A DNA stretch of 64,000 nt from Chthonomonadales bacterium. GTDB lineage: Bacteria > Armatimonadota > Chthonomonadetes > Chthonomonadales > CAJBBX01. Position 1 is the stretch's first letter. Each line of letters opens with the position of its first letter. Shown here piece by piece: positions 10,224 to 58,537 of this stretch. The notes under the pieces are model-generated. The model had not been told where the DNA came from, ran no database searches, and saw only the letters and a program-made list of their open reading frames with translations. The translations under genes were made by a program, and so were the position numbers. The stretch spans positions 66,837 to 130,836 of the forward strand of contig JBBIPC010000005.1 in the NCBI GenBank assembly GCA_037443035.1, written 5' to 3'.

Positions 10224-10625
10224 TCACCGGTCGGTCTCTCGGGCTGGTTCACGGGCTTCTTGCACGAATCTGGCGAGGGAACCAGCCAGCTTCTCGAGTA
10301 CGGCCAGCCAATCCTCGAGGTGTAGTCGTCCTGCGGGCGTGAGACGATACAAGTGCCGCGCAGGTCCTCTCCCCGTCACATCCCATTCGGAAGTCACAAA
10401 GCCGTTCGCCTCCAGCATGTGGAGCACACGGTAGAGAGCCGGCAAGTCCACGACCGAGTCGGTCAGAGCATGATCTTCCAGTGCTTTTCCGAGCTCGTAG
10501 CCGTGTGCCGCTCCCCGATCGCGCAGCAGTTGCAGCACTACCGGCTCGATGAACCGGTATAAGTTCCCCATGGCACAAGAACAGGGCTCTTCGCCACCGT
10601 GACGACGGCATCTCCTTCGCTGCAT
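10224..10625 (-). CDS. PadR-family transcriptional regulator with Cys/His-rich N-terminal extension
   Basis: Winged-helix PadR core FIEPVVLQLLRDRGAAHGYELGKALE...LYRVLHMLEANGFV...RHLYRLTPAG. The N-terminus is MQRRRCRRHGGEEPCSC. ATG 10625 has GGAGG 10 nt upstream. The track start 10748 lies inside the AT-rich promoter region and is rejected. Confidence 0.8.
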   Translation of the reverse strand: MQRRRCRRHGGEEPCSCAMGNLYRFIEPVVLQLLRDRGAAHGYELGKALEDHALTDSVVDLPALYRVLHMLEANGFVTSEWDVTGRGPARHLYRLTPAGRLHLEDWLAVLEKLAGSLARFVQEAREPARETDR

Positions 10626-10735
10626 CGGACCTGGACCTCCGGTAGTGTTGGCCGGCGGCGGCATAGCTAGCAGTGACGCCTCCGGAAAAAAAGCAAGAAA
10701 TCTCATGGAACATTGTAACATCTGCCAGCAGCTAT

Positions 10736-10748
10736 ATGTATAATACAT
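10736..10748. promoter_or_regulatory. Palindrome ATGTAT-a-ATACAT containing a TATAAT box, in the divergent PadR / NifX-like intergenic region
   Basis: atgtataatacat has 6-bp perfect arms, with TATAAT at 10739-10744. Two AACATTGT direct repeats flank it (about 10709-10716 and 10761-10768). ATGT/ACAT half-sites are the type reported for PadR operators. Confidence 0.3.
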
Positions 10749-10795
10749 GTAGACGCAACTAACATTGTCTAGGCGGTGCGTAAAAGGAGCATGTC

Positions 10796-11155
10796 ATGAA
10801 GATTGCAATCACGGCCAGCGGACATGAACCGACGAGTACTGTGGACGCCCGCTTTGGGAGAGCTGCCTACTTCATGGTGTACGACACCACGACGTCCACT
10901 TGGACCGCAGTGCCGAACGCGCAGAATGCCGGCGCTCCCCAGGGAGCCGGAGTGCAGGCGGCGCAGTTGTTGGCCAGGGAGAAGGTCTCCGTCGTCATCA
11001 GCGGTCACTGTGGGCCTAAGGCGTTCCGAGCCCTTCAGGCGGGCGCCATAGAAGTGTACAGCGGTGCCAACGGAACAGTGGCGGAGGCTCTGGAGGCGTA
11101 TCAGGCAGGGAAGCTGGTCCGACTGTCGGCACCAGATGTGCAAGGACATTGGTAG
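10796..11155 (+). CDS. NifB/NifX-family (COG1433-like) iron-molybdenum-cluster-binding-domain protein
   Basis: MKIAITASG...VDARFGRAAYFMVYD...GAGVQAAQLLAREKVSVVISGHCGPKAFRALQAGAIEVY matches the dinitrogenase FeMo-cofactor-binding-like fold pattern. RBS AAAAGGAG lies upstream. Confidence 0.85.
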   Translation: MKIAITASGHEPTSTVDARFGRAAYFMVYDTTTSTWTAVPNAQNAGAPQGAGVQAAQLLAREKVSVVISGHCGPKAFRALQAGAIEVYSGANGTVAEALEAYQAGKLVRLSAPDVQGHW

Positions 11156-11210
11156 ACGTTAGGCGCTACCGCGAGACAAGCACTCGACGAGGTAAGAGGA
11201 GGTCAAGAGA

Positions 11211-11522
11211 ATGCCAGGAATGGATGGTAAGGGTCCCGCGGGGCAGGGGCCGATGACAGGTCGAGGATTGGGTCCATGCGGGCGAGGTCTCGCCCGAGGC
11301 CGCGCTCCGGCACGGGGTCTGGGTCTCGGTCGCGGCTGGGGACGCGGGCTGGGTTTCGGACTGGGGCTCGCACTCGGGTGGTGCCGGCGCGCCGCCTGGT
11401 GGGCTGGGACACCTGCCGAGGAACGCGAGGTCTTGAAGGCGCGACAGGAAGTCCTCGAGCGGCAACTCGAGCTGGTCAAGCAACAGCTAGCCGAAACTGA
11501 GACCAAAGAAGAGCAGGCGTAA
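11211..11522 (+). CDS. DUF5320-family protein (Gly/Arg-rich N-terminal part, C-terminal coiled coil)
   Basis: MPGMDGKGPAGQGPMTGRGLGPCGRG... followed by EEREVLKARQEVLERQLELVKQQLAE. This is the same architecture I recall for DUF5320 (MPRGDGTGP..GPMTGRG.G.C). RBS AGAGGAGG. Confidence 0.7.
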   Translation: MPGMDGKGPAGQGPMTGRGLGPCGRGLARGRAPARGLGLGRGWGRGLGFGLGLALGWCRRAAWWAGTPAEEREVLKARQEVLERQLELVKQQLAETETKEEQA

Positions 11523-11528
11523 GCCCGC

Positions 11529-12383
11529 GTGAGGATCGGCGTCGCCAGTGGCAAAGGCGGAACGGGGAAGACGCTCCTTGCCACGAGCCTGGCCTACATC
11601 TTGGCCGAAGCCAGGCCGGTTCAGTACGTCGACTGCGACGTCGAAGAGCCGAACGGTCGGATTTTCCTGAAGCCGCGTATCACACGGTCTGAAGACGTCC
11701 GTGTGGACGTGCCGGTCATCGATGGAGAGGCATGTGCACTCTGCGGCGAGTGCGCCGAGTTCTGCCGGTTCGGAGCACTCGCCGCAATGGGCGAGAAGGT
11801 TCTGCTTTTCCCCGAGCTCTGCCACTCCTGCGGCGGGTGTGCGCTCGTCTGCCCGAACGATGCCATCCGAATGGGCCGTCGTAGTATCGGCAAGGTCGAG
11901 GTGGGACGATCGGGGAAGGTCGGTTTCGTCGAAGGGCGGCTGAACGTCGGCGAACCCATGGCGGCTCCGGTCATCTACGCGACGCTGGAGGCCGCGGACG
12001 AAGAGTCGCTCGTCATCGTGGATGCGCCGCCGGGTACATCCTGCGCGCTCATTGCCGCCATTCGAGCGTGTGACTACGTCTTGCTGGTCACGGAGCCCAC
12101 GCCATTCGGGCTACATGACCTGAGGCTGACGCTAGAGGTCGTCGCGGCTCTGGGGCTTCGCGCAGGGGTCGTGGTCAACCGAGAAGGGCTGGGCGACTTG
12201 GAGGTGGAGCCACTCTGCGCAGAGGCAGGCGTACCCATCCTGGCCAGGATCCCGTTCGACCGGCGGATCGCGGAAGTCTATGCAACGGGAGATAGCGTCA
12301 CCGATGCTCTGCCGGATGTTCGGTCCATCCTTAGCGACCTGGCCTGTGCGGTATTGCAGGAGAGCTCATGCCGGAACTCGTGA
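11529..12383 (+). CDS. MinD/ParA-superfamily P-loop ATPase with inserted 2x[4Fe-4S] ferredoxin domain (COG1149-like)
   Basis: Deviant Walker A GKGGTGKT. Two cluster motifs, CALCGECAEFC and CHSCGGCALVCP. GTG start. Confidence 0.85.
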   Translation: MRIGVASGKGGTGKTLLATSLAYILAEARPVQYVDCDVEEPNGRIFLKPRITRSEDVRVDVPVIDGEACALCGECAEFCRFGALAAMGEKVLLFPELCHSCGGCALVCPNDAIRMGRRSIGKVEVGRSGKVGFVEGRLNVGEPMAAPVIYATLEAADEESLVIVDAPPGTSCALIAAIRACDYVLLVTEPTPFGLHDLRLTLEVVAALGLRAGVVVNREGLGDLEVEPLCAEAGVPILARIPFDRRIAEVYATGDSVTDALPDVRSILSDLACAVLQESSCRNS

Positions 12384-13282
12384 TACTGAGCGGCAAGGGC
12401 GGCACGGGGAAGACCAGCGTCACTGCAGCATTCGCAGCGCTGGCCGTGCCTGTTACGTTGGCCGACTGCGATGTGGATGCCGCCGACTTGCACCTCGTGG
12501 CCGCGCCCGAGACAACCGAAACGCACGAGTTCCGATCGGGCTGGCACGCCGTCCTGGACCAGACTCTTTGTCGGCAATGTGGACGCTGCATCGCGTCGTG
12601 CCGGTTCGATGCAATCCACCGCGATAGGACGCGCTACCGCCAACTCCACATTGACCCGTTCGCCTGCGAAGGGTGCGGCGTGTGCGAGTTCGTCTGCCGC
12701 ATGGGCGCCATCTCCATGGAGGAGCCGATTCGGGGATTCTGGTACCGATCCGTGACCCGGTTCGGACCCATGTTCCATGCCCAACTACACCCGGGCGCAG
12801 AAAACTCCGGGAAGCTGGTGACCCTCCTGCGGCGGAAGGCCCGGCAAGCCGCCGAGCAGCCGAACGGTCTTCTCCTGACCGACGGGCCGCCGGGAGTGGG
12901 CTGCGCCGCCATCGCCACGCTTACGGGAGCGGATCACGTGCTCTTCGTTACGGAACCGACCGCAACCGGGCTACACGACCTGAAACGTGCGGAGAGATTG
13001 GCCGCTGGATTTCGTATCCCCGGCAGCGTCTTGATCAATAAAGCCGATCTCAGCCCGGAGATGAGCCGCTCCATTGCAGAGTATGCCGGCCAAGCGGGTC
13101 TTCATCTCCTGGGAGAGGTGCCGTTCGATGCCGCGTTCGCCCGGGCGCAGGCCGCCGGCCAGACGATATTGGAATACGGTCGGAGTCCTGGAGCCGACGC
13201 GCTACGAGTAGCATGGTCGCGGCTTCAGCGGCTGCTATCCGCCAAGACGCGCACACCGTTTCGAATTGTCAAGAATATGTAG
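12368..13282 (+). CDS. Second MinD/ParA-superfamily P-loop ATPase with inserted ferredoxin domain (COG1149-like)
   Basis: GKGGTGKT, CRQCGRCIASC and CEGCGVCEFVC motifs. It overlaps the previous gene by 16 nt. Confidence 0.85.
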   Translation: MPELVILSGKGGTGKTSVTAAFAALAVPVTLADCDVDAADLHLVAAPETTETHEFRSGWHAVLDQTLCRQCGRCIASCRFDAIHRDRTRYRQLHIDPFACEGCGVCEFVCRMGAISMEEPIRGFWYRSVTRFGPMFHAQLHPGAENSGKLVTLLRRKARQAAEQPNGLLLTDGPPGVGCAAIATLTGADHVLFVTEPTATGLHDLKRAERLAAGFRIPGSVLINKADLSPEMSRSIAEYAGQAGLHLLGEVPFDAAFARAQAAGQTILEYGRSPGADALRVAWSRLQRLLSAKTRTPFRIVKNM

Positions 13283-13298
13283 TTCGAGGGAGCCATCC

Positions 13299-13637
13299 AT
13301 GATCATCGCGATACCGCTCGTGGGAGACCGGTTGTCGGCCCACTTTGGTCATTGCGAGAAGTTCGCCCTCGTCCATGCCGATGGCGGCAAAGAGGGCGTT
13401 CTCAGGCTGGAGACTGTGACCCCACCGCCGCACGCACCGGGTGTCTTCCCGCAGTGGCTGGCCCAGTTGGGTGTACAGGTCGTGATCGTAGGCGGCATGG
13501 GCTCTCGGGCCCAGTCCCTCTTCGCCCAGCAAGGCATCACCGTCGTCACCGGTGCCCCCGTGGACACTCCGGAAGTTCTTGCGCAAGCCTACCTGAGCGG
13601 GTGTCTCCAGAGCGGAGAGAACGTCTGCGATCACTGA
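13299..13637 (+). CDS. NifB/NifX-family (COG1433-like) protein, second copy
   Basis: MIIAIPLVGDRLSAHFGHCEKFALV...PQWLAQLGVQVVIVGGMGSRAQSLFAQQGITVV. ATG 13299 is preceded by GAGGGA. Confidence 0.8.
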   Translation: MIIAIPLVGDRLSAHFGHCEKFALVHADGGKEGVLRLETVTPPPHAPGVFPQWLAQLGVQVVIVGGMGSRAQSLFAQQGITVVTGAPVDTPEVLAQAYLSGCLQSGENVCDH

Positions 13638-13797: not shown

Positions 13798-13828
13798 TTG
13801 TATAGATATTCACAACGTGTGGTAATAT
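13798..13828 (+). promoter_or_regulatory. AT-rich putative promoter of the cytochrome block
   Basis: TTGTAT (13798-13803) - 19 nt - TAATAT (13823-13828) with TG at -15/-14. This is the only AT-rich patch between 13.6 and 13.9 kb. GTGTGG direct repeats sit at 13786 and 13817. Confidence 0.3.
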
Positions 13829-13907
13829 AGTGGACGATTGGTGGCGCCGGAGCAGTTGCTCCGCTTCGACGTCTGCCAGCTACATAGTGACGGAGGTAAC
13901 GAGCACG

Positions 13908-14255
13908 GTGCAAGGACTATGGAAGCCTGCCATCAGCGTCGTCGTCCTGGTTCTCGGTGCGACAGCACTCGCCATGCCTGCGTACAAGGCGGTGTTGCAC
14001 TCCACCTACAAAGTGAAACCGGGCAGCGTCATCGCCAAGGCCGACTGCGCACTCTGCCACGCGACGAAGTCCAACTTCAAGAAGCTGAACGTGTTTGGCG
14101 CCGACCTTGACAAGGCGCTCAAAGTGGCGAAGTCGAAGGCAATGACCGCGGAGATCCTCAAGAAAGTCGAGACACTTGACTCCGACAAGGACGGGGTGAA
14201 AAACGTGGATGAAATACAGAAGGACACCCTGCCGGGAGATCCGAAGAGCAAGTAG
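13908..14255 (+). CDS. Small monoheme c-type cytochrome with signal/anchor helix and a DxDxDG-type loop
   Basis: It has a single CALCH motif, hydrophobic N-terminus AISVVVLVLGATALA and LDSDKDGVKNVDE near the C-terminus. GTG 13908 has GGAGG 11 nt upstream; the track start is 13830. Confidence 0.7.
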   Translation: MQGLWKPAISVVVLVLGATALAMPAYKAVLHSTYKVKPGSVIAKADCALCHATKSNFKKLNVFGADLDKALKVAKSKAMTAEILKKVETLDSDKDGVKNVDEIQKDTLPGDPKSK

Positions 14256-14367
14256 CGAGCGGTAGCGGATGCCGTGCGAACCCTGACTACCTCGGCTTCC
14301 GCCGCCTACAGGCTGGAAGACCCAACACCCATGCGCTCGTTGCACGAGCGCAAGAAAGGACAAGAGC

Positions 14368-15570
14368 ATGCGGAGAACGCATAAGGCAATCGTCGCAGTC
14401 GCCATTCTGTGTGGCTTCGTGGCCGCCGCGTCCAGCGCCTTGGCAGTACCCGCTTTCGGGCGCAAGACCGGCCTAGACTGCACTTCGTGCCACTTCGGTG
14501 GTTCGAATCGACTCACGAGAATGGGCCTGGATTTCCTCGTTCGCGGACATCGTATGAAGGATGATCAGGGCATTGCCAAGGGTGACAAGAGCCTGAACGT
14601 TCTGGACTACATGTCGTTCTCGTCCAAGGTTCGCTACACCGCGAACAACTCGTCACCGTACACGGCTTTCGACGTGGAGTCCTTCTCTATCTACACGGGC
14701 GGACCTCTTTCCGGGGGTTTCAGCTACTTCGTGGAGTACTACCTCCATGAGCGGGGCAAGGCGGCGTCCTCGACTGGTGGTCAGGTGGACACAGCTACGA
14801 GGTCGAAGCTTGCGGACGCGTATCTCCAATGGAACAGCGCCCCTCAGGGAGATGCGTATTACTACGTTCGAGCGGGCCAGATCTACCCGTACGCCGTCTA
14901 CGTCAATGGTTCTGGCGGTCGCCTGAGTATCAGTCGCCCGACAGTGATCGATGGTGATCTCGGGGGTGGCAACTTGTATACACCACGCGACCGTGCCTAT
15001 GGCCTGTCGGCCGGCTACGCGAACGGTAATGGGTACCGTATGGAAGCAGGGATCGTCAACAGCGGCGGAACCAACAAGCGCGCCAACCTCGCGGAGCAGA
15101 ATACTTTCAAGGATCTTTTCCTCACCGTGGAGAAGGACCTGACGTCTGAGCTAACGTTCGGACTGTACGGCTACAACGGACGCATCAACATCCCGGCGGC
15201 GGGAAGCATCCCCCAGTGGGAGGATCGCTTCACTCGGTATGGCGTCTTCAGCCGTTACGAGACCGAGAGTCTCGCCTTGAGCGCCGCGTACTTCGGAGGC
15301 CAGAACCAGGTCTACGGCGGCGGACACAGGAATCCTGACGGGTACTATCTCGAAGCGGGATACAACGTCCAGCCAACCTTGACGGGATTCGCACGCTACG
15401 ACCACGTCTACAACGACCTGGGCGCCTCATCGCGGCGAACGGATGTCACGTTCGGCGTGTCCCAGAGGCTGACGGATGTGGGGCGACTGGTGCTGCAGTT
15501 CAGCACTACGACAGTACCAGGATCACCATACAAGCGACAGTTGCAGGCGGAGCTGAACTGGCTCTTCTAG
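14368..15570 (+). CDS. Fused monoheme cytochrome c - outer-membrane beta-barrel (Cyc2-like porin-cytochrome)
   Basis: Signal peptide MRRTHKAIVAVAILCGFVAAASSALA, then VPAFGRKTGLDCTSCH (CxxCH at 14479-14493). About 355 aa of alternating-hydrophobic, Gly/Tyr/Asn-rich sequence follow, ending ...AELNWLF with the C-terminal aromatic typical of OM barrels. That it is a gene is near certain; the Cyc2 assignment rests on architecture only. Confidence 0.65.
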   Translation: MRRTHKAIVAVAILCGFVAAASSALAVPAFGRKTGLDCTSCHFGGSNRLTRMGLDFLVRGHRMKDDQGIAKGDKSLNVLDYMSFSSKVRYTANNSSPYTAFDVESFSIYTGGPLSGGFSYFVEYYLHERGKAASSTGGQVDTATRSKLADAYLQWNSAPQGDAYYYVRAGQIYPYAVYVNGSGGRLSISRPTVIDGDLGGGNLYTPRDRAYGLSAGYANGNGYRMEAGIVNSGGTNKRANLAEQNTFKDLFLTVEKDLTSELTFGLYGYNGRINIPAAGSIPQWEDRFTRYGVFSRYETESLALSAAYFGGQNQVYGGGHRNPDGYYLEAGYNVQPTLTGFARYDHVYNDLGASSRRTDVTFGVSQRLTDVGRLVLQFSTTTVPGSPYKRQLQAELNWLF

Positions 15571-15588
15571 GCACCGTACCGTTGTCTC

Positions 15589-15628
15589 GCTGCGGTGCTC
15601 CTCCCACGCCTAGGTGGAGCACCGCAGC
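15589..15628 (+). terminator. Perfect 13-bp stem-loop between the porin-cytochrome and heptaheme genes
   Basis: gctgcggtgctcc (15589-15601) / ggagcaccgcagc (15616-15628) with a 14-nt loop and no U-tract. It is an attenuator, partial terminator or mRNA-stabilising hairpin. Confidence 0.5.
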
Positions 15629-15811
15629 CTCATACGCAACAAGGGAAAGCACGATACAACGTCGCGAGACGATAGCTGCCAACCTCTGTGGCTACGACCT
15701 CCGTTGCCAGGCTGGGGACGTCGGATGCTTGGTGACCCGGGCGCGCCACCGAATGGCCCGTAGGCCCTGGGTACTGGCCACATCCATCGGCCAGCGGACC
15801 ACGATCTGAGG

Positions 15812-17305
15812 ATGAAGCTCCCACGTTCGTTCTACAACGTCACGACCTTCGTGGGAGCCCTCTTTGCGTTCCTGTTCCTCCTCGTTACGTTGTTCCTCTT
15901 CGCGGTGGAGCTGACCGCTCCGCAGTCCCATCCGTACATGGGGCTCGTCGCGTTCATCGTCCTTCCGACTCTTTTCGTCCTGAGTCTGCTTGTCGCGCTC
16001 TTCGGCATCTTCCGGACGTGGCGCCGGCTCCGAAAGCCGACAGCCACTCCCATCCCGCCGTTCCATTTCGATCTCAGTGTCCCGGCCCAACGTAACGCCG
16101 CTCTGCTCGTCATGGGAGGATCGGGGTTCTTCCTGCTGTTCGCCTCGTTCACGAGCTACCAAGCTTACGAGTACACCGATTCCGTCGAGTTCTGCGGAAG
16201 AGCCTGTCACGCGGTGATGAAGCCCGAATACACCGCCTACAAGGCTTCTCCCCACGCGAGGGTGGCCTGCGTGGCATGTCACATCGGCCCTGGAGCGACC
16301 TGGTTCGTCAAGTCCAAACTGAGTGGTACGTACCAGGTCTACTCCACACTCTTCCACAAGTACCACAAGCCCATCGAGACACCCATCGCCAACCTGCGTC
16401 CTGCTCGAGAGACCTGCGAGCAGTGCCACTGGCCCCAGCATTTCTACTCGGCCAAACTTCGCACGCAGGCCTACTTCCTGTCCGACGAGAAGAACACGCG
16501 CTCCAGCACGACGCTGCTGATGAAGATCGGCGGGGGTGATGTCAATCACGGAGCGGCGGCTGGCATCCATTTCCACATGTACCTGAACGCCACCATCTCC
16601 TACGTAGCCCTGGACAAGAAGCGTCTGGTGATCCCCTACGTGGAGGTCCGGTACCCTGACGGTACTTTCAGATCGTATCGAAGCACAGAGAATCCCGTAC
16701 CTGAAGACAAGCTGCGTAAGTCACCTCGCTACGTCGTAGACTGCATCGAGTGTCACAATCGACCGACCCACCGGTTCCGCCATCCGGCGCAGACCGTGAA
16801 CCTGGCCATGTCTTTGAACAAGATCAAGCCGGACCTGCCAGAGATCAAGAAGGTAGCCGTGGAAGCCCTGGAACAGCCATACAAGACGGAGCCGGAGGCC
16901 CTCCGAGGCATTCGCAAGGCTGTACTGGACGCTTTCCGAGCGAACCATCCGGACGTGGCGGCCTCGCGTGGTGCCGACATCGAAGCGGCCATCGAGGAGC
17001 TGCAACGTATCTACCGCACGAATTACTTTCCGGAGATGAAGGTAAGCTGGAAGGAGTTCCCGGATCATATCGGCCATCTGTACTCTCCGGGCTGCTTCCG
17101 ATGCCATGACGACAAGCATGTCAGCCCGGACGGCAAGGTCTTGTCACGCGCGTGCAATCAGTGCCACACGATACTGGCACAGACGGACGGCCAGGGCAAG
17201 ATGTCCGAATCGCTCGAGGGGCTGGCCTTCAAGCACCCAGGCGATGTGGGAGATGCCTGGATGCAGATGAACTGCACAGACTGCCACGCGCAACCAGCAC
17301 AATAG
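15812..17305 (+). CDS. Membrane-anchored heptaheme c-type cytochrome (NapC/NirT- / ImcH-like putative quinone-interacting cytochrome)
   Basis: Two N-terminal TM helices (FVGALFAFLFLLVTLFLFAV; GLVAFIVLPTLFVLSLLVALFGIF). Seven CxxCH motifs: CGRACH, CVACH, CEQCH, CIECH, CFRCH, CNQCH, CTDCH. The first pair, CGRACHAVM...CVACH, resembles NapC/NirT/NrfH spacing. Confidence 0.8.
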   Translation: MKLPRSFYNVTTFVGALFAFLFLLVTLFLFAVELTAPQSHPYMGLVAFIVLPTLFVLSLLVALFGIFRTWRRLRKPTATPIPPFHFDLSVPAQRNAALLVMGGSGFFLLFASFTSYQAYEYTDSVEFCGRACHAVMKPEYTAYKASPHARVACVACHIGPGATWFVKSKLSGTYQVYSTLFHKYHKPIETPIANLRPARETCEQCHWPQHFYSAKLRTQAYFLSDEKNTRSSTTLLMKIGGGDVNHGAAAGIHFHMYLNATISYVALDKKRLVIPYVEVRYPDGTFRSYRSTENPVPEDKLRKSPRYVVDCIECHNRPTHRFRHPAQTVNLAMSLNKIKPDLPEIKKVAVEALEQPYKTEPEALRGIRKAVLDAFRANHPDVAASRGADIEAAIEELQRIYRTNYFPEMKVSWKEFPDHIGHLYSPGCFRCHDDKHVSPDGKVLSRACNQCHTILAQTDGQGKMSESLEGLAFKHPGDVGDAWMQMNCTDCHAQPAQ

Positions 17306-17440
17306 CCACAGAGCGGGAGATCCAGCTCCCGCCACAAACAGGTGGACTGCGCAGTCGCGAAGCCGGACGAGGTCCCGGCCGCGACCTTGTAAGGCAATGT
17401 CCGCACGTGGATGCGGATTCACCGCGGGAGGTGAACAAGT

Positions 17441-17950
17441 ATGCCTGCACAGTCTACGAGGCCGCTGGACGACGAGAGGTCTGACGTTTCCGCAGCGGCC
17501 ACGCAAGCCGGTCGCCGAAGCTTTCTCGAGTGGCTGCTGGCCACCTTGCTAGTCGTGACCGGCGCTACCTTTGTTCGTCCTGTGCTGTCCTATCTCAGTC
17601 CCCGAAAGAGCGGCAAGGGTGCCCACGTTCTGCTCGGTACTGACGGCCGCTCCATTCCGTATGCACGGCTAGCCACGGAGCCGACACTCGTCGGCATGGG
17701 CGTGGACGGGGAGCCTACGATTGTCGTGAGGTACGCCGGAGAAACAAGGGCATTCTCGGCGGTCTGCACACATCTGGGCTGCCTCGTCAAGTGGGAGGCG
17801 GCCAAGGCCGAGTTCATCTGCCCGTGCCACAACGGCCACTTCGACGCGAACGGTGTCAACGTTGCCGGGCCACCACCCAAACCGCTGAAACGCTTCAAGG
17901 TCTACGCAACGGACAGGGGCGAAATCGGTCTCGAGGAGGTATCGGCATGA
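17441..17950 (+). CDS. Rieske [2Fe-2S] subunit of a cytochrome bc-type complex
   Basis: Tat-like RRSFLEWLL followed by a TM helix. Cluster boxes CTHLGC and CPCHNGHF. Its stop overlaps the cytochrome b start (ATGA at 17947). Confidence 0.9.
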   Translation: MPAQSTRPLDDERSDVSAAATQAGRRSFLEWLLATLLVVTGATFVRPVLSYLSPRKSGKGAHVLLGTDGRSIPYARLATEPTLVGMGVDGEPTIVVRYAGETRAFSAVCTHLGCLVKWEAAKAEFICPCHNGHFDANGVNVAGPPPKPLKRFKVYATDRGEIGLEEVSA

Positions 17951-19011
17951 AGCGCCTCGTTACCTCGGTGTGGCGATGGATAGATACACGCCTGAAGCTC
18001 AGCGATATCTTGCGGGCTACCCTAACCGAGTACATGGTGCCGGCGAACCTCAACTTCTGGCACACACTGGGCTTCGTTCTGGTGACCTGCTTCGTCATCC
18101 AGGTGGTCACCGGCATGCTCCTCCTGATGTACTACGTTCCGGACACCAGCCGAGCTTTCGAATCCGTCCAATACCTCAGCAATGAGGTGCCTTACGGGTG
18201 GCTCGTGCGGAACATCCACGCGATGACATCCCACCTGTTCGTGCTGGCGCTATTCCTCCATATCGCCTCCACCGTCTGGATGCGGGCCTACCGCAATCCG
18301 CGGGAGCTCCAGTGGCTTTCGGGGATGATCCTCCTGGGTCTAGTGCTAGCTGCCGGTCTGTCTGGCTACCTACTGCCGTGGAGCCAGCTCTCGTACTGGG
18401 CGACAACCGTGGCGACCAACGCCGCAGGGAGCATTCCTGTCGTTGGTGATGATCTCGTGCTCTGGATTCGCGGAACGCCGAAGGTGACGCAGTTCACTCT
18501 CGGACGATTCTTCGCGGCGCACGTCTCCATCATTCCGTTCAGCATTCTGGTCCTGATCGGCATCCACCTGCTGTTCCTTCGACTGACAGGTATCTCTGTC
18601 CCAGGGGGTGAGGAGAGGGGTCCGGTCCGCAGAGTGCCATTCTTCCCTCACATGGTGGTGAAGGAGATCGGTTCGGTCTTCGGATTCCTGATCCTTCTGA
18701 ATGTCCTGATCTTCTACTTCCCGCAGATCAACTTCCCCGCGGACGCCCTCATTCCCGCTAATCCGCTCGAAACTCCCGCTCATATCAAACCGCACTGGTA
18801 CTTCCTGGCTAACTACCAGTTCCTGAAGCTCGTGCCCAGCGAGTTTCTCGGTGTTATCCTCCAAGTCGTTGGAGGGATTATCCTTTTCTTCCTGCCATTC
18901 CTCGACACAGGTAAGCGACGGTCCCCGCTCTACAACCGGCTGTTCTACGCGGTGGTCGGTCTCAGCATCCTCGGTTACATCGGCCTGATGGTCTGGGGCT
19001 ACTACTCATGA
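17947..19011 (+). CDS. Cytochrome b (fused b6 + subunit-IV-like, 354 aa)
   Basis: FWHTLG, RNIHAMTSHLFVLALFLH (H-x13-H), GYLLPWSQLSYWATTVATN, AHVSIIPFSILVLIGIH (H-x14-H) and the Qo motif region IKPHWYFL. ATG 17947 is coupled to the Rieske stop; the track start 17791 is a 5-prime shadow. Confidence 0.9.
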   Translation: MKRLVTSVWRWIDTRLKLSDILRATLTEYMVPANLNFWHTLGFVLVTCFVIQVVTGMLLLMYYVPDTSRAFESVQYLSNEVPYGWLVRNIHAMTSHLFVLALFLHIASTVWMRAYRNPRELQWLSGMILLGLVLAAGLSGYLLPWSQLSYWATTVATNAAGSIPVVGDDLVLWIRGTPKVTQFTLGRFFAAHVSIIPFSILVLIGIHLLFLRLTGISVPGGEERGPVRRVPFFPHMVVKEIGSVFGFLILLNVLIFYFPQINFPADALIPANPLETPAHIKPHWYFLANYQFLKLVPSEFLGVILQVVGGIILFFLPFLDTGKRRSPLYNRLFYAVVGLSILGYIGLMVWGYYS

Positions 19012-19829
19012 GGAGGTACGGGTTGATGATGCGCATTCTCGTTACAGCCCTGGCACTATCGGTGGTCGGGGGGGCGGCCCGGGGGCAGAACTCGTGTCTC
19101 GCCTGCCACCGACAGCAAGAGGGTGATCGTGGCGGTCCAGCCCATGACTGGCCGACAAGCGTGCACTTCGTGAACGGGATTGGTTGCCAGGATTGCCACG
19201 GCGGCGACGCCCGTTCCGACGACCCTCAGATCGCCATGAACCCCAAGAACGGCTTCGTCGGTCGGCCAGCTCCAAGGGACGTTCCCAACTTCTGTGGCAA
19301 GTGTCACGAAGCTGTTCGCGACAACTACCTGCAGAGCGCTCATGCAGCCATGCTCCAGGCTGACCCGGCAGCCGCGCCCAACTGCGTCACGTGCCACACC
19401 GCCCATAAACAGCAGAAGGTTACGCTGGACCTCATCAACGAGCGAACGTGCGGCCGGTGTCACGATTACGCACGGGCAGCGAGGCTCAAGGAAGCCATGC
19501 GCGGTATCGAGAACGATGTGCAAGCGGTGACTGCTCGCGAACGTCACGTGTTCCTCCACGGCATCGCCACAGACGACGAACAGAAGGCTATCTTTGCCGT
19601 CCGTAATCAGGCACACAGGCTTACCCACGTCCTGGAGATCCAGAGAATCCTCGGTGCATTGGACAAGGTACGGCCCGACCTGGATCGCGTAGAGGCGCGG
19701 ATTTCGGTCAAGGAGAAGGTCCTGGAGGATAGACGGCGAGAAGGGAACGCTCTCCTCGTGCTCTTCTTCATCGGCATGATCGTCGCCTACGCTACGCACA
19801 AGAGGCTCATGCATACCGCCAGCGGTTGA
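19008..19829 (+). CDS. Pentaheme c-type cytochrome with C-terminal membrane anchor (cytochrome c subunit of the bc-type complex)
   Basis: Signal peptide, then five CxxCH motifs (CLACH, CQDCH, CGKCH, CVTCH, CGRCH) and C-terminal helix LLVLFFIGMIVAYATH. ATGA overlap with the cytochrome b stop. Confidence 0.85.
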   Translation: MRRYGLMMRILVTALALSVVGGAARGQNSCLACHRQQEGDRGGPAHDWPTSVHFVNGIGCQDCHGGDARSDDPQIAMNPKNGFVGRPAPRDVPNFCGKCHEAVRDNYLQSAHAAMLQADPAAAPNCVTCHTAHKQQKVTLDLINERTCGRCHDYARAARLKEAMRGIENDVQAVTARERHVFLHGIATDDEQKAIFAVRNQAHRLTHVLEIQRILGALDKVRPDLDRVEARISVKEKVLEDRRREGNALLVLFFIGMIVAYATHKRLMHTASG

Positions 19830-19870
19830 GGCACGAGTTGGACTGGGGGCGTACGGATTCGAACCAACTC

Positions 19871-19900
19871 TTGACAGGCACTCCTTAGCCGTGCTATATA
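19871..19900 (+). promoter_or_regulatory. Near-consensus sigma70-type promoter
   Basis: TTGACA (19871-19876) - 18 nt - TATATA (19895-19900), 30 nt upstream of GTG 19930. Confidence 0.45.
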
Positions 19901-19929
19901 TTTGTCACGTTCGTGGCAAGGGGAGTGCG

Positions 19930-20631
19930 GTGCATTCGATACGCGTGACATTGGCGGCAGCCCCGCTGGTGGCGCTTCTGCTATGGCCGTCGGCCGCCGC
20001 GGCCGATGTGCGTCACTTCCCCTACACCTACTCCTGGCACCAGCCGTACCGCAACGAGAAGGAGATCGCTTATCACCTGCGGTATCTAGATCGAGACAAC
20101 ACCTTCACCCATCGCTTCGAGTTCGAGTACGGCCTCACAGATCACCTGTCCGTAGCACCCTACGTCGTCTTCACTGGGAATACCGGCGGCGGCTGGACAT
20201 ACGACGCAACGTTGCTAGAGACACGCTGGAACTTCGGAAGTCGCAAGGACGACGTCTGGTTGCCCGCAGTCTACATGGAGTGGAAGAAGGCCAGATCCGA
20301 GCCCTGGGAAGTGGAGGGCAAAATCATCATCACGCGCTATGGCACAGGCGAATCGGATCTCTCGCTCAACTACATTGTCGAGCAACTCCTGGAGACGGGA
20401 GCCAGTGCGCATCATGCGCTGTCTCTGGCGTACAGCAGAACCATCGGTGGCGGCATGCGGGCGGGATTCGAGTGGATTCAGGGTCTCACGTCTCGCAGGA
20501 TCAATGCGGGGCCTGTGTTCTCAAGCTACGTGGGACCAGTGTGGCTCACGGGAGGGCTGGCTCTGCCGCTGAACGGCGTTTCTGGCAATCGCCCCGAGTT
20601 CCGACTCATCGCCTCCCACCACTGGTTCTGA
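19930..20631 (+). CDS. Small outer-membrane beta-barrel protein, function unknown
   Basis: Signal VHSIRVTLAAAPLVALLLWPSAAAA, alternating amphipathic strands and C-terminal ...RLIASHHWF. GTG 19930 has AAGGGGAG 5 nt upstream. Confidence 0.6.
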   Translation: MHSIRVTLAAAPLVALLLWPSAAAADVRHFPYTYSWHQPYRNEKEIAYHLRYLDRDNTFTHRFEFEYGLTDHLSVAPYVVFTGNTGGGWTYDATLLETRWNFGSRKDDVWLPAVYMEWKKARSEPWEVEGKIIITRYGTGESDLSLNYIVEQLLETGASAHHALSLAYSRTIGGGMRAGFEWIQGLTSRRINAGPVFSSYVGPVWLTGGLALPLNGVSGNRPEFRLIASHHWF

Positions 20632-20661: not shown

Positions 20662-21300
20662 ATGACAGCAGTGGCGTCCGCTACAGGAGACGTACGGGCC
20701 GCTCGGCGGCTGGCCCTGTTCACCGTCGCCTGGAACCTGACCGAGGCGTTCGTGGCCTTGTTGAGCGGAATACTGGCTGGCAGCATCGCATTGGTCGGAT
20801 TTGGCGCCGACTCCATAGTGGAGAGTCTATCCGGTGCGGTGATGCTCTGGCGTTTCGGGGCGACCGACCACGACGGCCGTCGAGAGAAGCTGGCCTTACG
20901 GTTGGTGGGAGCCACCTTGCTCATCCTCGCTGTGTACGTCGCAGGCGACGCAGCTCAGAGCCTCGCTCGCCGTGAGCCACCCGAGAAGAGCATCCCTGGC
21001 ATCATTCTCGCGATGCTATCGCTGGCCGTAATGCCTCTGCTCGCACGTGCCAAGCGAAGAGTGGCCGGCAGGCTACAGAGCGCCTCGTTACATGCCGACT
21101 CGCGGCAGACCGACATCTGCGCCGTGCTATCCGCCATCTTGCTTGTTGGACTGGCCCTAAATGCCATAGCTGGGTGGTGGTGGGCCGATCCTATGGCTGC
21201 GATCGCTATGACGCCGCTCATCGCGCGTGAGGGAGTGAATGCCGTGCGCGGAGAAGCGTGCGGCTGTGCCGTGCAACATCCTACAGCGAAGTCAGACTGA
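20662..21300 (+). CDS. Cation diffusion facilitator-type cation efflux transporter (short form, membrane domain only)
   Basis: Six predicted helices. CDF-like motifs GSIALVGFGADSIVESLSG and LHADSRQTDICAV. Lies 30 nt after the barrel gene on the same strand. Confidence 0.7.
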   Translation: MTAVASATGDVRAARRLALFTVAWNLTEAFVALLSGILAGSIALVGFGADSIVESLSGAVMLWRFGATDHDGRREKLALRLVGATLLILAVYVAGDAAQSLARREPPEKSIPGIILAMLSLAVMPLLARAKRRVAGRLQSASLHADSRQTDICAVLSAILLVGLALNAIAGWWWADPMAAIAMTPLIAREGVNAVRGEACGCAVQHPTAKSD

Positions 21301-22674
21301 CTCTCCTTGGTTCTCCATGGCGTCGCGGGCCATTCTCACTAGGTCCCGGGCTTCCGGCTCAGTCGGTGCTTCGGCAATGACGCGGATGATAGGCTCCGTG
21401 TTGGACGCCCGGGCCTGCAGCCACCGGTCGGGCCAGATCGCTTTGACGCCGTCGGTGAAGTCGAGCGTCGCGCCAACACAGGCAGCCTGAAGGCGACGCA
21501 GTGCAACGGGTACATCACGCGGACGCGCTGGCATCCGTTCCTTCAACATGGCGTACGCTGGAATCGCAGAACGCAGGTCACGGATCGTCGCGCGCTCCGT
21601 GGCCATGGCCTCCAGGATGTACCCCATGGCTACGAAACTGTCGCGGCACGGATTGATGTGGGGTGCTATGACGCCGCCGTTACCTTCACCACCGATACGC
21701 GCTCCTACCTCCAGCATCTTCTCTACGACATTGATCTCTCCAACCTTCGTGCGGTACAGCGTACAGCCTGTTTCTGAACAGACGTCGTCTATCATGCGGC
21801 TCGTGGAAACGTTGACCACAACCGGTCCAGGACTCCGCCGTGTCGCGTGCCGCACCGCCAGTGCCACGGTCACCTCCTCACCGAGCGGGATGCCGTTCTG
21901 GTCGGCGATGGCCAAGCGATCGGCGTCGGCATCCTGTACAAAGCCAACATCGGCTCCCGATTCCCGAACGGCCATGCCGAGATCCGTCATGTTCTCCGGT
22001 ACGGGCTCTGGACTGTGGGGGAACGGCCTATCGGGGTCCGTGTGGATGGCCACAACCTTGCAGCCCAGACCTTCCAGGAAGGTTGGCGTTGCCCTGGACG
22101 CCGCTCCGTTGCAGCAGTCCACCGCAACGCGAATGCCGGCGCGACGAATGCTCTCCACATCCAGAGCCTGCCGGACGGCTTCCAGGTGACGCGGAATGGC
22201 CGAGCTATCGTGACGCACTTGCGGAACGGCCGCACCGCCGACGCGGGGATAGATACCCTGATGGTAGAGATCCGTGAGCTCGGCGGCTTCGTGAGGGCGG
22301 AGAAGGATGCCGTCCGGACCGAAGAACTTCAGAGCATTCCACTCGATAGGATTGTGACTGGCCGTGAGACAAATGCCGCCGAACGCCCCCATGCGCCGTA
22401 CATGTAGCTGCAACGCCGGCACGGGTAGGATGCCGACGTCCACCGGCGTACATCCCACGCTCTGAAGCCCGGCTATGACCGCGTACTCCACCATCTCCCG
22501 GGATGGTCGGGTGTCCGTTCCCACAAGGATCGGCCCAGCGCCCGCATAGGCACCGAAAGCTGCGGCAAATGACGTCACGAGCTGTGGCGTCAGCGCATCG
22601 CCCACGATGCCCCGCACACCAGAGATGCTGATCTTGAGTGCGAGCTGCTTGCGACGCAACAGGTTCGCAGCCAT
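21292..22674 (-). CDS. Phosphohexomutase (phosphoglucosamine / phosphomannomutase family)
   Basis: Canonical loops: phosphoserine TASHNP, metal DADADR, sugar GEGNGG, phosphate RASNTEP. Confidence 0.85.
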   Translation of the reverse strand: MAANLLRRKQLALKISISGVRGIVGDALTPQLVTSFAAAFGAYAGAGPILVGTDTRPSREMVEYAVIAGLQSVGCTPVDVGILPVPALQLHVRRMGAFGGICLTASHNPIEWNALKFFGPDGILLRPHEAAELTDLYHQGIYPRVGGAAVPQVRHDSSAIPRHLEAVRQALDVESIRRAGIRVAVDCCNGAASRATPTFLEGLGCKVVAIHTDPDRPFPHSPEPVPENMTDLGMAVRESGADVGFVQDADADRLAIADQNGIPLGEEVTVALAVRHATRRSPGPVVVNVSTSRMIDDVCSETGCTLYRTKVGEINVVEKMLEVGARIGGEGNGGVIAPHINPCRDSFVAMGYILEAMATERATIRDLRSAIPAYAMLKERMPARPRDVPVALRRLQAACVGATLDFTDGVKAIWPDRWLQARASNTEPIIRVIAEAPTEPEARDLVRMARDAMENQGESV

Positions 22675-22675
22675 C

Positions 22676-24052
22676 TCAGCGACCTCCGTGCCCCCAGGCA
22701 GCCCGCCGGGCGATCGTCACACACTCGTCGAAGAGCCGGTCGGCATCATCCGCGCTGGATGCTTCCAATATGATCCGCACCAGAGGCTCGGTGTTGGACG
22801 CGCGAACGTGCAACCATGCCTCGGGCCAATCGAATCGAACACCATCTGTAAGGTCGGGCCGGTCCTCGCGGAATCGTTCGCAGAAGCTGTCGAGGATTCG
22901 ACGGACGCTAGTGGGCGGGCAGGGCAGCTCGGCCTTGCGCATATGGTACGCGGGCAGGTCCGCGGCCAGATCCGCAAGCGACCGTCCGCTCACCGATATG
23001 GCCTCCAGCACCGTGGCCAGAGAGAGCAGCGCATCGAATGTAGTCGTGTGCGGTAACGCAGCGACGCCTCCGTTTCCTTCTCCAGCCAGAGCGGCCGACT
23101 CCGTCAGAGCACGGTCCATGACATGGCCTTCGCCAACGCTCGTGCGAATGCATTCGCGGCCGTATTGTCGAGCAACGGCCTCCACCATGCGTGAGGTGGA
23201 TAAGTTCGTGACGACCGGCCCCTCGCGCCGGGCCAGCACGTGCCGCGCCACAATCGGCAGGACACACTCTTCGGAAAGAGCCTCGCCGGCGTGTGTAACG
23301 AGACCCAACCGGTCTCCATCCACGTTGATGGCGGCCCCAAGGTCGGCCTGCACGCTCCGAAGCAGGGCCGCGAGTTGCCGCATGTTCGCTGGTGAGGGAG
23401 CGGGCAAGTGGGCAAAGGAACCGTCCGCATCGTCGTTCAGTGGTATCACTTGGCAGCCAAGGGCGTCGAGGAATCGCTTGCCAAGTTCCGTCGCCGCCCC
23501 GTTGCAGAAGTCCACGGCGATACGAAGTCCTTTGCTGCGGATGGTAGCCGCGTCCACTGCGTCCAGTATGGATGCAACATACGCGTTCGAGGCCTCGGCG
23601 GTGACATGGCGCTTGCCCAGGGCCTGCCATGGCGCCAGCGTAAACGCTGAGGCATGGTAGATGTCCAGCAGCTCCTCGGTGTTGGCAGCGTTGAGAAGCG
23701 CCCCATCCGGTCCTACGAACTTCAGGGCGTTCCAGCGTACGTCGTTATGGCTGCCTGTAATGGAGATGCCACCTGCGGCGCTCCGTGAGCGCACTGCGTG
23801 GCTTACGGCCGGAGTCGTGCACACACCCAGGTCCAGGACATCCGTACCGGTGCTGATGAGCGCCGAAAGAACCGCGGCATGGAGCATGCTCGAGCTGAGA
23901 CGCGTGTCTCGCCCGATCACGACCTCACCGCCGCCGCAATACGTGCCGAAAGCGCTGGCGAAGTCCACCACCAGCTCGGGGGTCATCGCCTCGCCCACGA
24001 CGCCTCGAACGCCCGAGACGCCGATCTTGAGTTGACGAAGTGCGAGATCCAT
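22676..24052 (-). CDS. Phosphohexomutase paralog with divergent active-site loops
   Basis: Same four-domain layout, but TGSHND replaces TASHNP and NVDGDR replaces DxDxDR. GEGNGG and RASNTEP are conserved. Its stop lies 1 nt from the start of the downstream paralog. Confidence 0.8.
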   Translation of the reverse strand: MDLALRQLKIGVSGVRGVVGEAMTPELVVDFASAFGTYCGGGEVVIGRDTRLSSSMLHAAVLSALISTGTDVLDLGVCTTPAVSHAVRSRSAAGGISITGSHNDVRWNALKFVGPDGALLNAANTEELLDIYHASAFTLAPWQALGKRHVTAEASNAYVASILDAVDAATIRSKGLRIAVDFCNGAATELGKRFLDALGCQVIPLNDDADGSFAHLPAPSPANMRQLAALLRSVQADLGAAINVDGDRLGLVTHAGEALSEECVLPIVARHVLARREGPVVTNLSTSRMVEAVARQYGRECIRTSVGEGHVMDRALTESAALAGEGNGGVAALPHTTTFDALLSLATVLEAISVSGRSLADLAADLPAYHMRKAELPCPPTSVRRILDSFCERFREDRPDLTDGVRFDWPEAWLHVRASNTEPLVRIILEASSADDADRLFDECVTIARRAAWGHGGR

Positions 24053-39210: not shown

Positions 39211-39975
39211 ATGTCACGTCGTGGTTTCACCCTCATCGAGTTGCTCGTCGTGATCGCGATCATCGCGATCCTCGCCGCGATCCTGTTCCCTGTCTTCGCA
39301 CAGGCACGGGAGAAGGCCCGCTCGATCTCCTGTCTGTCCAACGTCAAGCAGCTGACTCTGGCGCAGCTCATGTATGTTCAGGACAACGACGAGAAGTTCA
39401 CCGGATGGAACTGGGGCCAGCGCTTCGAGATGGACTCCGCATCCTACTGGTCCGTGTGCGCCCTGCCGTACATCAAGAGCATCAAGCTGTATCAGTGCCC
39501 CAGCGACGCCCTCGAGTGGCCGACGGTCAACGACTGGACCGGTCAGGGACCTGACGCCGGCGCCCACGATCCGTTCGCTAGCTGGCAAGATAGGTACTGG
39601 TGGGAGAAGCCGAACAACCCGAACTTCATCTCCTACGGAATCAACGAATCGCTCATGGGCGGGCGCAAGCTCGCAGCCGTCAAGAGCCCGGCGAACTACT
39701 CCATGATCATGGACTCGTCCATCGGTCTGGTGAACGCGTGGGAAGGCTGGGGGCAGGACTACATCGCCTGCCGCGCCGCGTTCTCCAACCAGGGCTGCTG
39801 CTTGATCTGGCAGGACGGCCATAACGCTGCGTGGTTCAAGGCCAACTACAGCGCCGAGGAACTCGAGTCAGCCACTCGTCATACGGGCGGCCAGAACGTC
39901 AGCTTTGTCGACGGCCATGCCAAGTGGATGAAGTGGGAGAACATGACCGTCGCGAACCTGTCGCCGAGCAACTGA
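39211..39975 (+). CDS. Prepilin-type N-terminal cleavage/methylation domain protein, DUF1559 / H-X9-DG family
   Basis: [27 protein letters not shown] plus C-terminal [13 protein letters not shown] (H-x9-DG). Confidence 0.9.
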
Positions 39976-58506: not shown

Positions 58507-58537
58507 CGGGCGCACCGTTAAGGAGGATTGCAGGGCC

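Follow-up and report, generated by a model that had tools for sequence, protein, structure and literature searches.

A 64,000-nucleotide (nt) stretch of DNA from a Chthonomonadales bacterium (Armatimonadota), hereafter the window, contained eight genes in a row on the + strand between 13.9 and 21.3 kb. They are labelled g1–g8 here. They comprised a small cytochrome c, a putative divergent homologue of the fused cytochrome-porin Cyc2, a heptaheme cytochrome with the architecture of ImcH, a Rieske/cytochrome b/pentaheme complex and two further genes:

g1, 13908–14255, + strand: secreted monoheme cytochrome c with the heme motif CALCH, 115 amino acids (aa)
g2, 14368–15570, + strand: Cyc2-like fused monoheme cytochrome-porin, 400 aa
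g3, 15812–17305, + strand: ImcH-type inner-membrane heptaheme cytochrome, 497 aa
g4, 17441–17950, + strand: Rieske 2Fe-2S subunit exported by twin-arginine translocation (Tat)
g5, 17947–19011, + strand: cytochrome b with seven transmembrane (TM) helices (fused b6 and subunit IV)
g6, 19008–19829, + strand: periplasmic pentaheme cytochrome c with a C-terminal membrane anchor, 273 aa
g7, 19930–20631, + strand: secreted beta-rich protein of no known family, ending in ...HHWF, 233 aa
g8, 20662–21300, + strand: short divalent-metal efflux protein of the CDF family, transmembrane domain only

A first-pass annotation of the window had described the block as consecutive same-strand genes, and apart from small corrections all eight products fitted its description. 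The ATGA start/stop overlaps that it gave for g4/g5 and g5/g6 were confirmed by reading the DNA, and its count of 14 c-hemes was correct provided that the CX3CH site of g3 is included. The gaps that it called short were not very short between g1 and g2 (112 nt), g2 and g3 (241 nt) or g3 and g4 (135 nt); those between g6 and g7 and between g7 and g8 measured approximately 100 nt and 30 nt. Its treatment of seven genes as one unit did not hold up, as the full block occurred in only one relative, which was ~96% identical (locus L024). Minus-strand open reading frames (ORFs) within the block (e.g. 15692–16576 and 19056–19814) were taken as high-GC shadows of the well-supported + strand genes.

The g2 product had a hydrophobic N-terminus at residues 7–25, read as a signal peptide, and CTSCH at residues 38–42 as its sole heme motif, within the N-terminal sequence AVPAFGRKT-GLD-CTSCH-FGGS-NRL. 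The AlphaFold2 (AF2) model (pLDDT 80.8, pTM 0.81) contained 16 beta-strands spanning residues 82–399, so that the barrel covers ~320 aa and not the ~355 aa estimated before. Its best Foldseek matches were 16-strand general porins, with OprO at rank 21. The published description of Cyc2 comprises a signal peptide, one CXXCH, the upstream motif AXPXFAR[Q/K][T/Y], a downstream PXL, a 16-strand porin and a length of at least 365 aa (Keffer et al. 2021, PMC8406198). Of these features, g2 had the signal peptide with a single N-terminal CXXCH, the predicted C-terminal 16-strand porin and, with 400 aa, the length. Both motifs flanking the heme site deviated, and the strict motif filter of Keffer et al. 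would discard the protein. Because g2 failed the strict motif test, we refer to it as Cyc2-like and not as Cyc2. Most members of its clade read PAW-x-R where Cyc2 has FAR, and the truncated orthologue at locus L019 (P0255) reads AVPAFARKT, the strict Cyc2 motif.

Searches with Pfam and NCBIfam assigned g2 to no family even at E = 1, and its exact protein sequence had no database record. Among 5.8 billion proteins it had 45 homologues, all without informative names and mostly from metagenome-assembled genomes (MAGs) of Armatimonadota, Fimbriimonadia or Chthonomonadaceae; distant homologues came from Saganbacteria/WOR-1, Elusimicrobia and Bdellovibrio-like MAGs. C38, C41 and H42 were invariant in an alignment of 20 homologues, as were P28, A29 and L49. 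Used alone against the 5.8 billion sequences, g2 matched two strict-motif proteins (E = 5e-4 and 7e-4). A g2-family profile matched 5213 cluster representatives at E ≤ 1e-3; the strict Cyc2 motif was present in 41 of the best 146 matches, many of which also carried PKL. As a control for circularity, the profile was rebuilt from ten Armatimonadota sequences, none with the strict motif (Z = 1.84e9). This clade-only profile matched 43 of 43 strict-motif proteins (E from 5.5e-44 to 1.7e-4), none of them a named reference Cyc2, and in most alignments inspected the match spanned both the N-terminal part and the barrel. A cluster look-up for a named Cyc2 among the distant g2 matches returned no informative names. 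We concluded from the profile matches that g2 is probably a homologue of the Cyc2-type fused cytochrome-porins, belonging to a divergent clade. The heme-bearing outer-membrane barrel that had been proposed for this gene is consistent with a modelled 16-strand porin that is probably homologous to Cyc2-type proteins. A conduit of the Mtr/Pcc type, in which a large barrel of at least 20 strands encloses a separate multiheme cytochrome, was considered and rejected: the 16-strand barrel of g2 is too small, its heme is fused, g7 with 233 aa is too small as well, and matches to MtrC/MtrF and DmsE models were below the cut-off.

Directly upstream, g1 had a GTG start preceded by a GGAGG ribosome-binding site, a signal peptide and a single CALCH. 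A loop with the sequence DSDKDGxKNxxE, followed by an LPGDPKSK tail (window 14160–14255, g1 residues 90–115), was strictly conserved in the family. Judged by eye, it resembles an EF-hand or dockerin calcium-binding loop, which would be unusual in a small c-type cytochrome. NCBIfam gave a weak match to the N-terminal part of a 'GEGP motif-containing diheme protein'.

ImcH proteins are described as having three TM helices, seven hemes with the first CXXXCH beside the membrane, homology to NapC/NirT and a length of 495–519 aa (PMC4251993, PMC6295460). In g3, a Kyte–Doolittle hydropathy scan, which is a crude predictor, gave N-terminal TM segments at 14–32, 45–63 and 96–114. The protein had been annotated as a heptaheme cytochrome with two TM segments; the seven heme sites stood, but the TM segments numbered three. 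The first site, CGRACH (CX3CH), lies at residue 128 just past the membrane part and is followed by CVACH, CEQCH, CIECH, CFRCH, CNQCH and CTDCH. With 497 aa, g3 falls within the published length range. It matched PF03264 (NapC/NirT, 1.1e-8), NrfH TIGR03153 (4e-12) and the NrfH structure 2j7a_C in the PDB (7.9e-6), and the quinol dehydrogenase NrfH was its sole solved relative. The family comprised more than 8000 proteins of ~497 aa and was unusually conserved, at ~53% identity over Armatimonadota, Bacteroidota and Ignavibacteria, and its nearest named relatives were annotated in these phyla as 'NapC/NirT family cytochrome c'. Since g3 matches every published architectural feature, we regard it as probably ImcH-type, as the ImcH/NapC-like label of the first annotation implied; the assignment is one by architecture. 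The NrfH and NrfB model matches reflect nothing more than shared NapC/NirT-type and multiheme folds. A nitrite or hydroxylamine module was rejected, as NrfA and Hao were absent.

The three genes that follow g3 appear to encode one Rieske/cytochrome b complex, and the earlier descriptions of its subunits (a Tat-signal Rieske protein, a b6-type cytochrome b and a membrane-anchored pentaheme) all stood. The g4 product carried a Tat-type RRSFL motif (in GRRSFLEW) and the Rieske boxes CTHLGC and CPCHNG, which conform to the CxHxGC and CxCH boxes of bc-complex Rieske proteins; it matched PF00355 (4.7e-12) and a PetC-like model (7e-25). A serine after the Rieske CPCHG box is associated with high-potential clusters. 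Since g4 has no serine there, it is likely to be of the low-potential menaquinol type. Menaquinones are used by isolates of the Armatimonadota, and we infer that the chain through g4–g6 is of the menaquinol type. Cytochrome b (g5) matched PF00033 (1.6e-56), PF00032, the Aquifex bc1 complex (6kls_B, 4.5e-73) and an ExtP model (1.6e-56). It had seven TM segments and the heme-ligand pairs H91/H105, with 13 residues between them, and H192/H207 on helix D, with the 14-residue spacing of the b6 type; no cysteine was present at the heme ci position. Its Qo motif reads PHWY, with histidine for the usual glutamate or aspartate (residues 282–285, window 18790–18801), and so do those of L024 and L019. 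The distant cytochrome b of locus L023 has the canonical PEWY.

The pentaheme g6 had a signal peptide, five CX2CH motifs and a C-terminal TM helix at 246–264. Homologues stood in the same position at L019 (69% identity), L024 (97%) and L023 (N-terminal part, E = 5.6e-15). A monoheme cytochrome c1 or cytochrome f was absent, the gene overlapping g5 being that of the anchored pentaheme. In this position g6, whose translation is coupled to that of cytochrome b, probably stands in for cytochrome c1/f. With a pentaheme replacing c1/f, the complex is a multiheme variant and strictly neither bc1 nor b6f. Anammox and deltaproteobacterial Rieske/cytochrome b complexes likewise use a multiheme c subunit in place of c1/f.

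Homologous loci were compared in relatives, among them L024 (Logan SRR12999147), L019 (JGI 3300045276) and L004 (Fimbriimonadales AMX-MBFR-61). At ~96% nucleotide identity, L024 contained the entire g1–g8 block. L019, the closest relative that is not conspecific, with a g3 80% identical, had g1, a g2 stump, g3, g4, g5 and g6 and lacked g7 and g8. L023 (g3 54%, cytochrome b 41% identical; presumably from another phylum) had g3, Rieske, cytochrome b, a 492-aa multiheme and CcmF genes, with a CbcL-like gene upstream. In 12 fetched loci, a g1 homologue and a Cyc2-like gene stood within 600 nt of each other; some of these had a further g1 copy on the opposite flank. In L017, L018, L025/L026 and L028, g1, the Cyc2-like gene and a CbcL-like gene followed in a row; in the product of the latter, a multiheme cytochrome is joined to a membrane domain of the cytochrome b561/HydC type, which is the CbcL/MtoC architecture. 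L033 had an ImcH-like gene, g1 and a Cyc2-like gene. On one strand of L004 (3476–11125) lay a CbcL-like gene, an ImcH-like gene, a multiheme/4Fe-4S/NrfD module, a g1-like gene and a Cyc2-like gene. This locus, from a Fimbriimonadales MAG of an anammox/membrane biofilm (MBfR) reactor, elaborates the same theme further and would probably make a better object of study. The Cyc2-like gene was solitary in L001/L003, L007, L010, L027, L030, L032/L034, L035, L042/L043 (a very abundant lineage) and L044.

The comparison points to two conserved units, namely g1 with g2, and g3 with g4, g5 and g6. In at least five lineages, with g2 identities of 48–96%, the Cyc2-like pair adjoined a bc complex or CbcL-like, ImcH-like or NrfD-type modules. 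This recurrent adjacency to quinone-interacting multiheme modules speaks for a functional tie by way of the periplasmic c-heme pool, and a link between the Cyc2-like pair and quinone-pool cytochromes is thus supported by gene neighbourhood. The L019 stump and the many solitary copies indicate that such coupling is not obligatory. No terminal oxidase or substrate-specific reductase stood next to any of these loci. Homologous blocks that always adjoin, and are co-expressed with, a soluble-substrate oxidoreductase had been named beforehand as what would refute the proposal, and no such enzyme was found at L019, L023 or L024.

Three candidate transcription signals were found in and upstream of the block:

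13803–13831, + strand: weaker, sigma-70-like motif TAGATA-17-TATAGT, a lead only, in the 270-nt gap ahead of g1
15589–15628, + strand: GC-rich hairpin, 19 nt past the g2 stop, with no T-run
19871–19900, + strand: promoter-like TTGACA-18 nt-TATATA in the g6–g7 gap, a lead only

Sigma-70-like motifs were no more numerous in the region than in shuffled sequence. The TTGACA-N18-TATATA motif escaped the consensus scan because its -10 hexamer lacks the final T. The hairpin, with 16-nt arms that are 94% complementary, had a predicted energy of -36 kcal/mol (z = -4.1), and none of 200 shuffles was as stable. Its stem was identical in L024, and in both sequences 11 nt separate two 13-nt arms. Lying between g1–g2 and the genes from g3 onwards, it is a candidate terminator, attenuator or mRNA-stabilizing element. 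Together with the promoter-like motifs it counsels caution against reading the block as one obligatory operon, although these are leads and not proof.

The last two genes adjoined the block only in the window and in L024, and g7 and g8 are best regarded as local additions outside the core. The start of g7 is more probably the GTG at 19930 (233 aa) than 19891; the former is preceded by GGGGAG, and a 96% identical homologue (P0316) was annotated from the equivalent position. The protein had a signal peptide, a C-terminal aromatic residue and a beta-rich appearance in a poor model, and it had been called a second small barrel. That call found no support, as the AF2 model from a three-sequence alignment had a pLDDT of 32 and neither Pfam nor NCBIfam gave a match, even at E = 1. 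In profile–profile comparison with the Cyc2-like barrel, the signal peptides alone aligned. The protein search returned only two homologues. The sole distant homologue, a tblastn match (29% identity, E = 4e-13) on the - strand of L012, a Candidatus Saganbacteria MAG (7725–8387), was located 1.6 kb from a Cyc2-like gene, which hints that g7 may be associated with the heme-porin; it is possibly a small outer-membrane protein. The CDF exporter noted next to the block was confirmed in g8, which matched PF01545 (1.6e-12) and the CDF superfamily, with weak MamB/FieF-like matches.

Outside the block, the window encoded a GH42 glycosidase, a DUF1559 prepilin-type protein, acetyl-CoA carboxylase subunits and two phosphoglucomutase/phosphomannomutase paralogues, and it otherwise looks like that of a carbohydrate-using heterotroph. 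The H-X9-DG lineage marker of the first-pass annotation corresponded to the prepilin-type N-terminal methylation motif and DUF1559 domain at 39211–39975, in agreement with the Armatimonadota homologues. The Pfam-annotated ORFs of the whole window included no oxidase and no soluble-substrate reductase, as had been claimed for the block. The GC content in 2-kb windows was 0.596–0.606 over the block and 0.60–0.645 elsewhere; with no compositional break and no integrase or transposase among the annotated ORFs, a phage or mobile-element origin was rejected. Rfam and tRNA scans of the window gave no matches. Directly upstream of g1, a same-strand cluster encoded a NifX/Nitro_FeMo-Co-like protein, a DUF5320 protein, two MinD/ParA-type ATPases with 4Fe-4S domains and a second NifX-like protein, faced by a PadR-family regulator on the - strand (10224–10748; cluster region 10224–13637). 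The two ATPase genes were largely deleted in L024. L001 and L021 had a PadR gene too, the former directly upstream of its solitary Cyc2-like gene and the latter near its ImcH-like gene. The phosphoglucomutase/phosphomannomutase paralogues (460 and 458 aa) lay in tandem on the - strand just downstream of the block (21292–24052) and were kept in L024. Further along, the 1640-aa ORF at 44092–49014 had only a weak DUF6259 match, the 1100-aa ORF at 54058–57360 ended in an FtsX-like permease domain and followed an ABC ATPase gene, and the 1561-aa ORF at 58325–63010 had no Pfam match.

The results reported above cover the order and domains of the genes, the numbers of hemes and TM segments, the modelled barrel, the homologies and the recurring synteny; for the path proposed here, we infer the subcellular locations, protein contacts, substrate and direction of flow. 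We hypothesized, with a little less than even confidence, that the block is a composite respiratory cluster of an uncultured, apparently heterotrophic Armatimonadota bacterium that forms a coupled, Fe(II)-oxidizing path between the outer membrane and the menaquinone pool. In the outer membrane, g2 would act as a 16-strand porin with a c-heme near its N-terminus, served by g1 as its cognate secreted monoheme cytochrome. The inner membrane would hold an ImcH-type module, g3, with a NapC/NirT-like quinol site, and a b6-type bc module, g4–g6, with the anchored pentaheme as its periplasmic c subunit. Dissolved Fe(II) would be oxidized at the g2 heme, and the electron would pass to g1 and on to the periplasmic c-heme pool formed by the heme domains of g6 and g3. 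From there electrons could either reach a terminal oxidase encoded elsewhere or, driven by the proton-motive force, be handed by the bc complex or the ImcH-type protein to the menaquinone pool. The Cyc2 proteins tested so far are Fe(II) oxidases, with a redox potential of about +208 mV for that of strain PV-1 (PMC8406198). As a single heme inside a porin can meet only small soluble species, Fe(II) oxidation is the most likely activity of g2.

A number of observations weigh against this hypothesis. The upstream motif of g2 agrees with that of Cyc2 at eight of nine positions, with G for the A of FAR, and the PXL motif four residues after CXXCH reads NRL, with N for P and the L kept. Reports of ImcH are so far confined to Fe(III) reducers (PMC6295460), which favours outward flow. 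No terminal oxidase, carbon-fixation gene or iron-specific regulator was visible in the 64-kb window. By default a bc complex oxidizes quinol, which again favours outward flow. At L019, the 136-aa g2 stump (8524–8934) covers only residues 8–116, i.e. the heme domain and the first strands, between an intact g1 and g3–g6, and is either a barrel deletion or a soluble derivative; the retention of g3–g6 beside this remnant indicates that the inner-membrane modules work without the porin. L023 has the g3-Rieske-cytochrome b-multiheme module without a Cyc2-like gene, homologues of g3 were also found alone, and approximately half of the Cyc2-like genes of the clade were solitary. The hairpin and the promoter-like motif suggest that the block is divided into two or three transcription units, and the hairpin after g2 may instead point to differential expression.

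Outward transfer along the same proteins is an unlikely alternative. Menaquinol would be oxidized by the ImcH-type protein, the Rieske/cytochrome b complex or both, and electrons would leave through the pentaheme and g1 to the Cyc2-like porin. The porin would reduce a soluble oxidant outside the cell or within reach of the periplasm (chelated Fe(III), shuttles of the humic or quinone kind, or a metal other than iron), giving a heterotroph an option for anaerobic respiration. Beyond the thermodynamic default of the bc complex, ImcH is the quinol oxidase needed for high-potential extracellular acceptors and is known only from reducers, and the rest of the window looks heterotrophic. The ext cluster of Geobacter also joins a porin-like protein, a Rieske/cytochrome b pair and multihemes in a metal or metalloid reducer. 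CbcL-like and NrfD-type quinol modules adjoin the Cyc2-like pair in relatives, but the CbcL/MtoC family is found in iron oxidizers too. Every tested Cyc2, including that of PV-1 at about +208 mV, is an Fe(II) oxidase; a lone heme within a 16-strand barrel cannot contact minerals, and at neutral pH only chelated Fe(III) is soluble. The first-pass annotation had stated that the direction of electron flow cannot be told from the sequence, and we agree.

Comparably improbable, at roughly one chance in four, is that the two units merely lie side by side. Genes g4–g6, with or without g3, would then be an ordinary complex III equivalent feeding an oxidase encoded elsewhere, and g1–g2 a separately regulated accessory that might serve, e.g., to detoxify Fe(II) or to oxidize it opportunistically and that lacks any dedicated coupling to its neighbours. 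The hairpin and the 241-nt gap between g2 and g3 fit such an arrangement, as do the truncated porin gene of L019, the porin-free module of L023 and the many solitary Cyc2-like genes. Moreover, Rieske/cytochrome b complexes with a multiheme c subunit are known from a number of lineages that are anaerobic or branch early (Dibrova 2013, as cited in PMC5317091). Nevertheless, the presence of the Cyc2-like pair beside three kinds of quinone-interacting multiheme modules in at least five lineages is hard to ascribe to chance, and the order g1, g2, g3–g6 was kept between the window and L019 despite a g3 only 80% identical. Very improbable is another substrate for the porin (Mn(II), reduced sulfur species, iodide or organic redox shuttles) or a role mainly as a redox sensor: the clade deviates from the Cyc2 motif (FGR or PAW for FAR, NRL for PXL), its hosts are not known as iron oxidizers and regulators (PadR, a sigma-70 factor, a two-component system) adjoin solitary copies, but no substrate-specific enzyme is linked to the gene, its profile matches point to homology with the iron-oxidizing family and, as weak evidence, a CDF divalent-metal exporter lies nearby in this genome.

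Cyc2 is the main metagenomic marker for iron oxidation (FeGenie), and ImcH and CbcL are markers for iron reduction. In several lineages of the Armatimonadota, a phylum regarded as heterotrophic, markers of both kinds share one cluster. If the modules cooperate, calls of oxidizers and reducers from marker genes need caution. The divergent motif of g2 and its relatives also means that a whole Cyc2-like clade escapes strict motif filters. The partners of ImcH were an open question at its discovery (PMC4251993), and the locus offers candidates in the Rieske/cytochrome b/pentaheme complex, the monoheme cytochrome c and the heme-porin. The cluster would also be a compact and experimentally tractable connection between the outer membrane and the quinone pool. 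A broader and rather doubtful idea is that Cyc2-type porins in heterotrophic Armatimonadota are hard-wired to ImcH and CbcL, the inner-membrane cytochromes that characterize extracellular respiration of the Geobacter kind, and to a multiheme bc complex. If this were true, either ImcH-type proteins would run as quinone reductases in Fe(II) oxidation, linking ImcH to an iron oxidase for the first time, or a Cyc2-type porin would work reductively, as a minimal one-heme exit for respiratory electrons through the outer membrane.

Among known systems, Cyc2 of Acidithiobacillus ferrooxidans and Mariprofundus ferrooxydans PV-1 resembles g2 in its signal peptide, lone N-terminal CXXCH, predicted 16-strand porin and length of ~400 aa. 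The two also share A-x-P-x-F-x-R-K-T three residues ahead of the heme site, and the profile matches of the g2 clade to strict-motif proteins extend over the N-terminus and barrel. They differ in that g2 has FGR for FAR (most of its clade PAW) and NRL for PXL, and in that the clade is mainly from Armatimonadota and stands beside ImcH, bc-complex or CbcL-type genes and not beside an oxidase or rusticyanin. The adjacent g1 may be compared with cyc1, likewise a small periplasmic cytochrome c gene next to that of Cyc2. The rus and petI operons of A. ferrooxidans have the same proposed chain, from Cyc2 through a periplasmic carrier uphill to a Rieske/cytochrome b complex; there it runs from Cyc2 over rusticyanin and CycA1 to bc1. 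However, they are separate operons with a monoheme c1, whereas the block lacks rusticyanin and an aa3 oxidase and has a b6-type, probably menaquinol-type, cytochrome b.

ImcH of Geobacter sulfurreducens (GSU3259) is like g3 in its three TM helices, one CX3CH and six CX2CH sites, NapC/NirT homology and length. It is monocistronic in Geobacter, whereas g3 lies directly upstream of a Rieske/cytochrome b/multiheme operon in the window, L019, L023 and L024. Two Fe(II)-oxidation clusters, mtoA-mtoB-mtoD-cymA of Sideroxydans ES-1 and mtoAB-mtoC of Gallionella ES-2, follow the same logic of an outer-membrane conduit, a monoheme carrier and an inner-membrane quinone cytochrome. The last of these is of the NapC/NirT (CymA) or CbcL (MtoC) type, and L017, L025, L028 and L004 carry a CbcL/MtoC-like gene. 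In the mto clusters a decaheme MtoA sits inside the MtoB barrel, in contrast to the monoheme fused porin of the block, which adds a Rieske/cytochrome b complex.

The multiheme Rieske/cytochrome b complexes (Dibrova 2013, as cited in PMC5317091) resemble g4–g6 in their 7-TM or split b6-like cytochrome b and a multiheme in place of c1/f. Different here are the pentaheme with its C-terminal anchor, the PHWY Qo motif and the linkage to ImcH-type and Cyc2-like genes. The Geobacter extHIJKLMNOPQS cluster (PMC5877670) shares with the block a porin-like outer-membrane protein (weakly similar to phosphate porins), several cytochromes of the c type, the Rieske protein ExtO and the b-type cytochrome ExtP. 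However, no heme is fused to ExtI, the 23-kDa ExtP is split and b6-like and is accompanied by a separate ExtQ, and ext adds 10- and 12-heme cytochromes, a rhodanese and a selenoprotein and is implicated in selenite and tellurite reduction. The combination had been thought undescribed. Within an incomplete coverage of the literature, no description was found of a Cyc2-like gene clustered with ImcH-type and Rieske/cytochrome b genes, nor of the four-gene ImcH-Rieske-cytochrome b-multiheme module, which bears this out. It is less unprecedented than had been supposed, given the ext and mto clusters and a FeGenie-based Cyc2 call already published for an Armatimonadota MAG (PMC9671151). Zhong and Shi (PMC6295460) had left open a possible co-occurrence of ImcH with metal oxidation, a question on which the locus bears. 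Each part of the block is of a known kind, and it is their combination that appears to be new.

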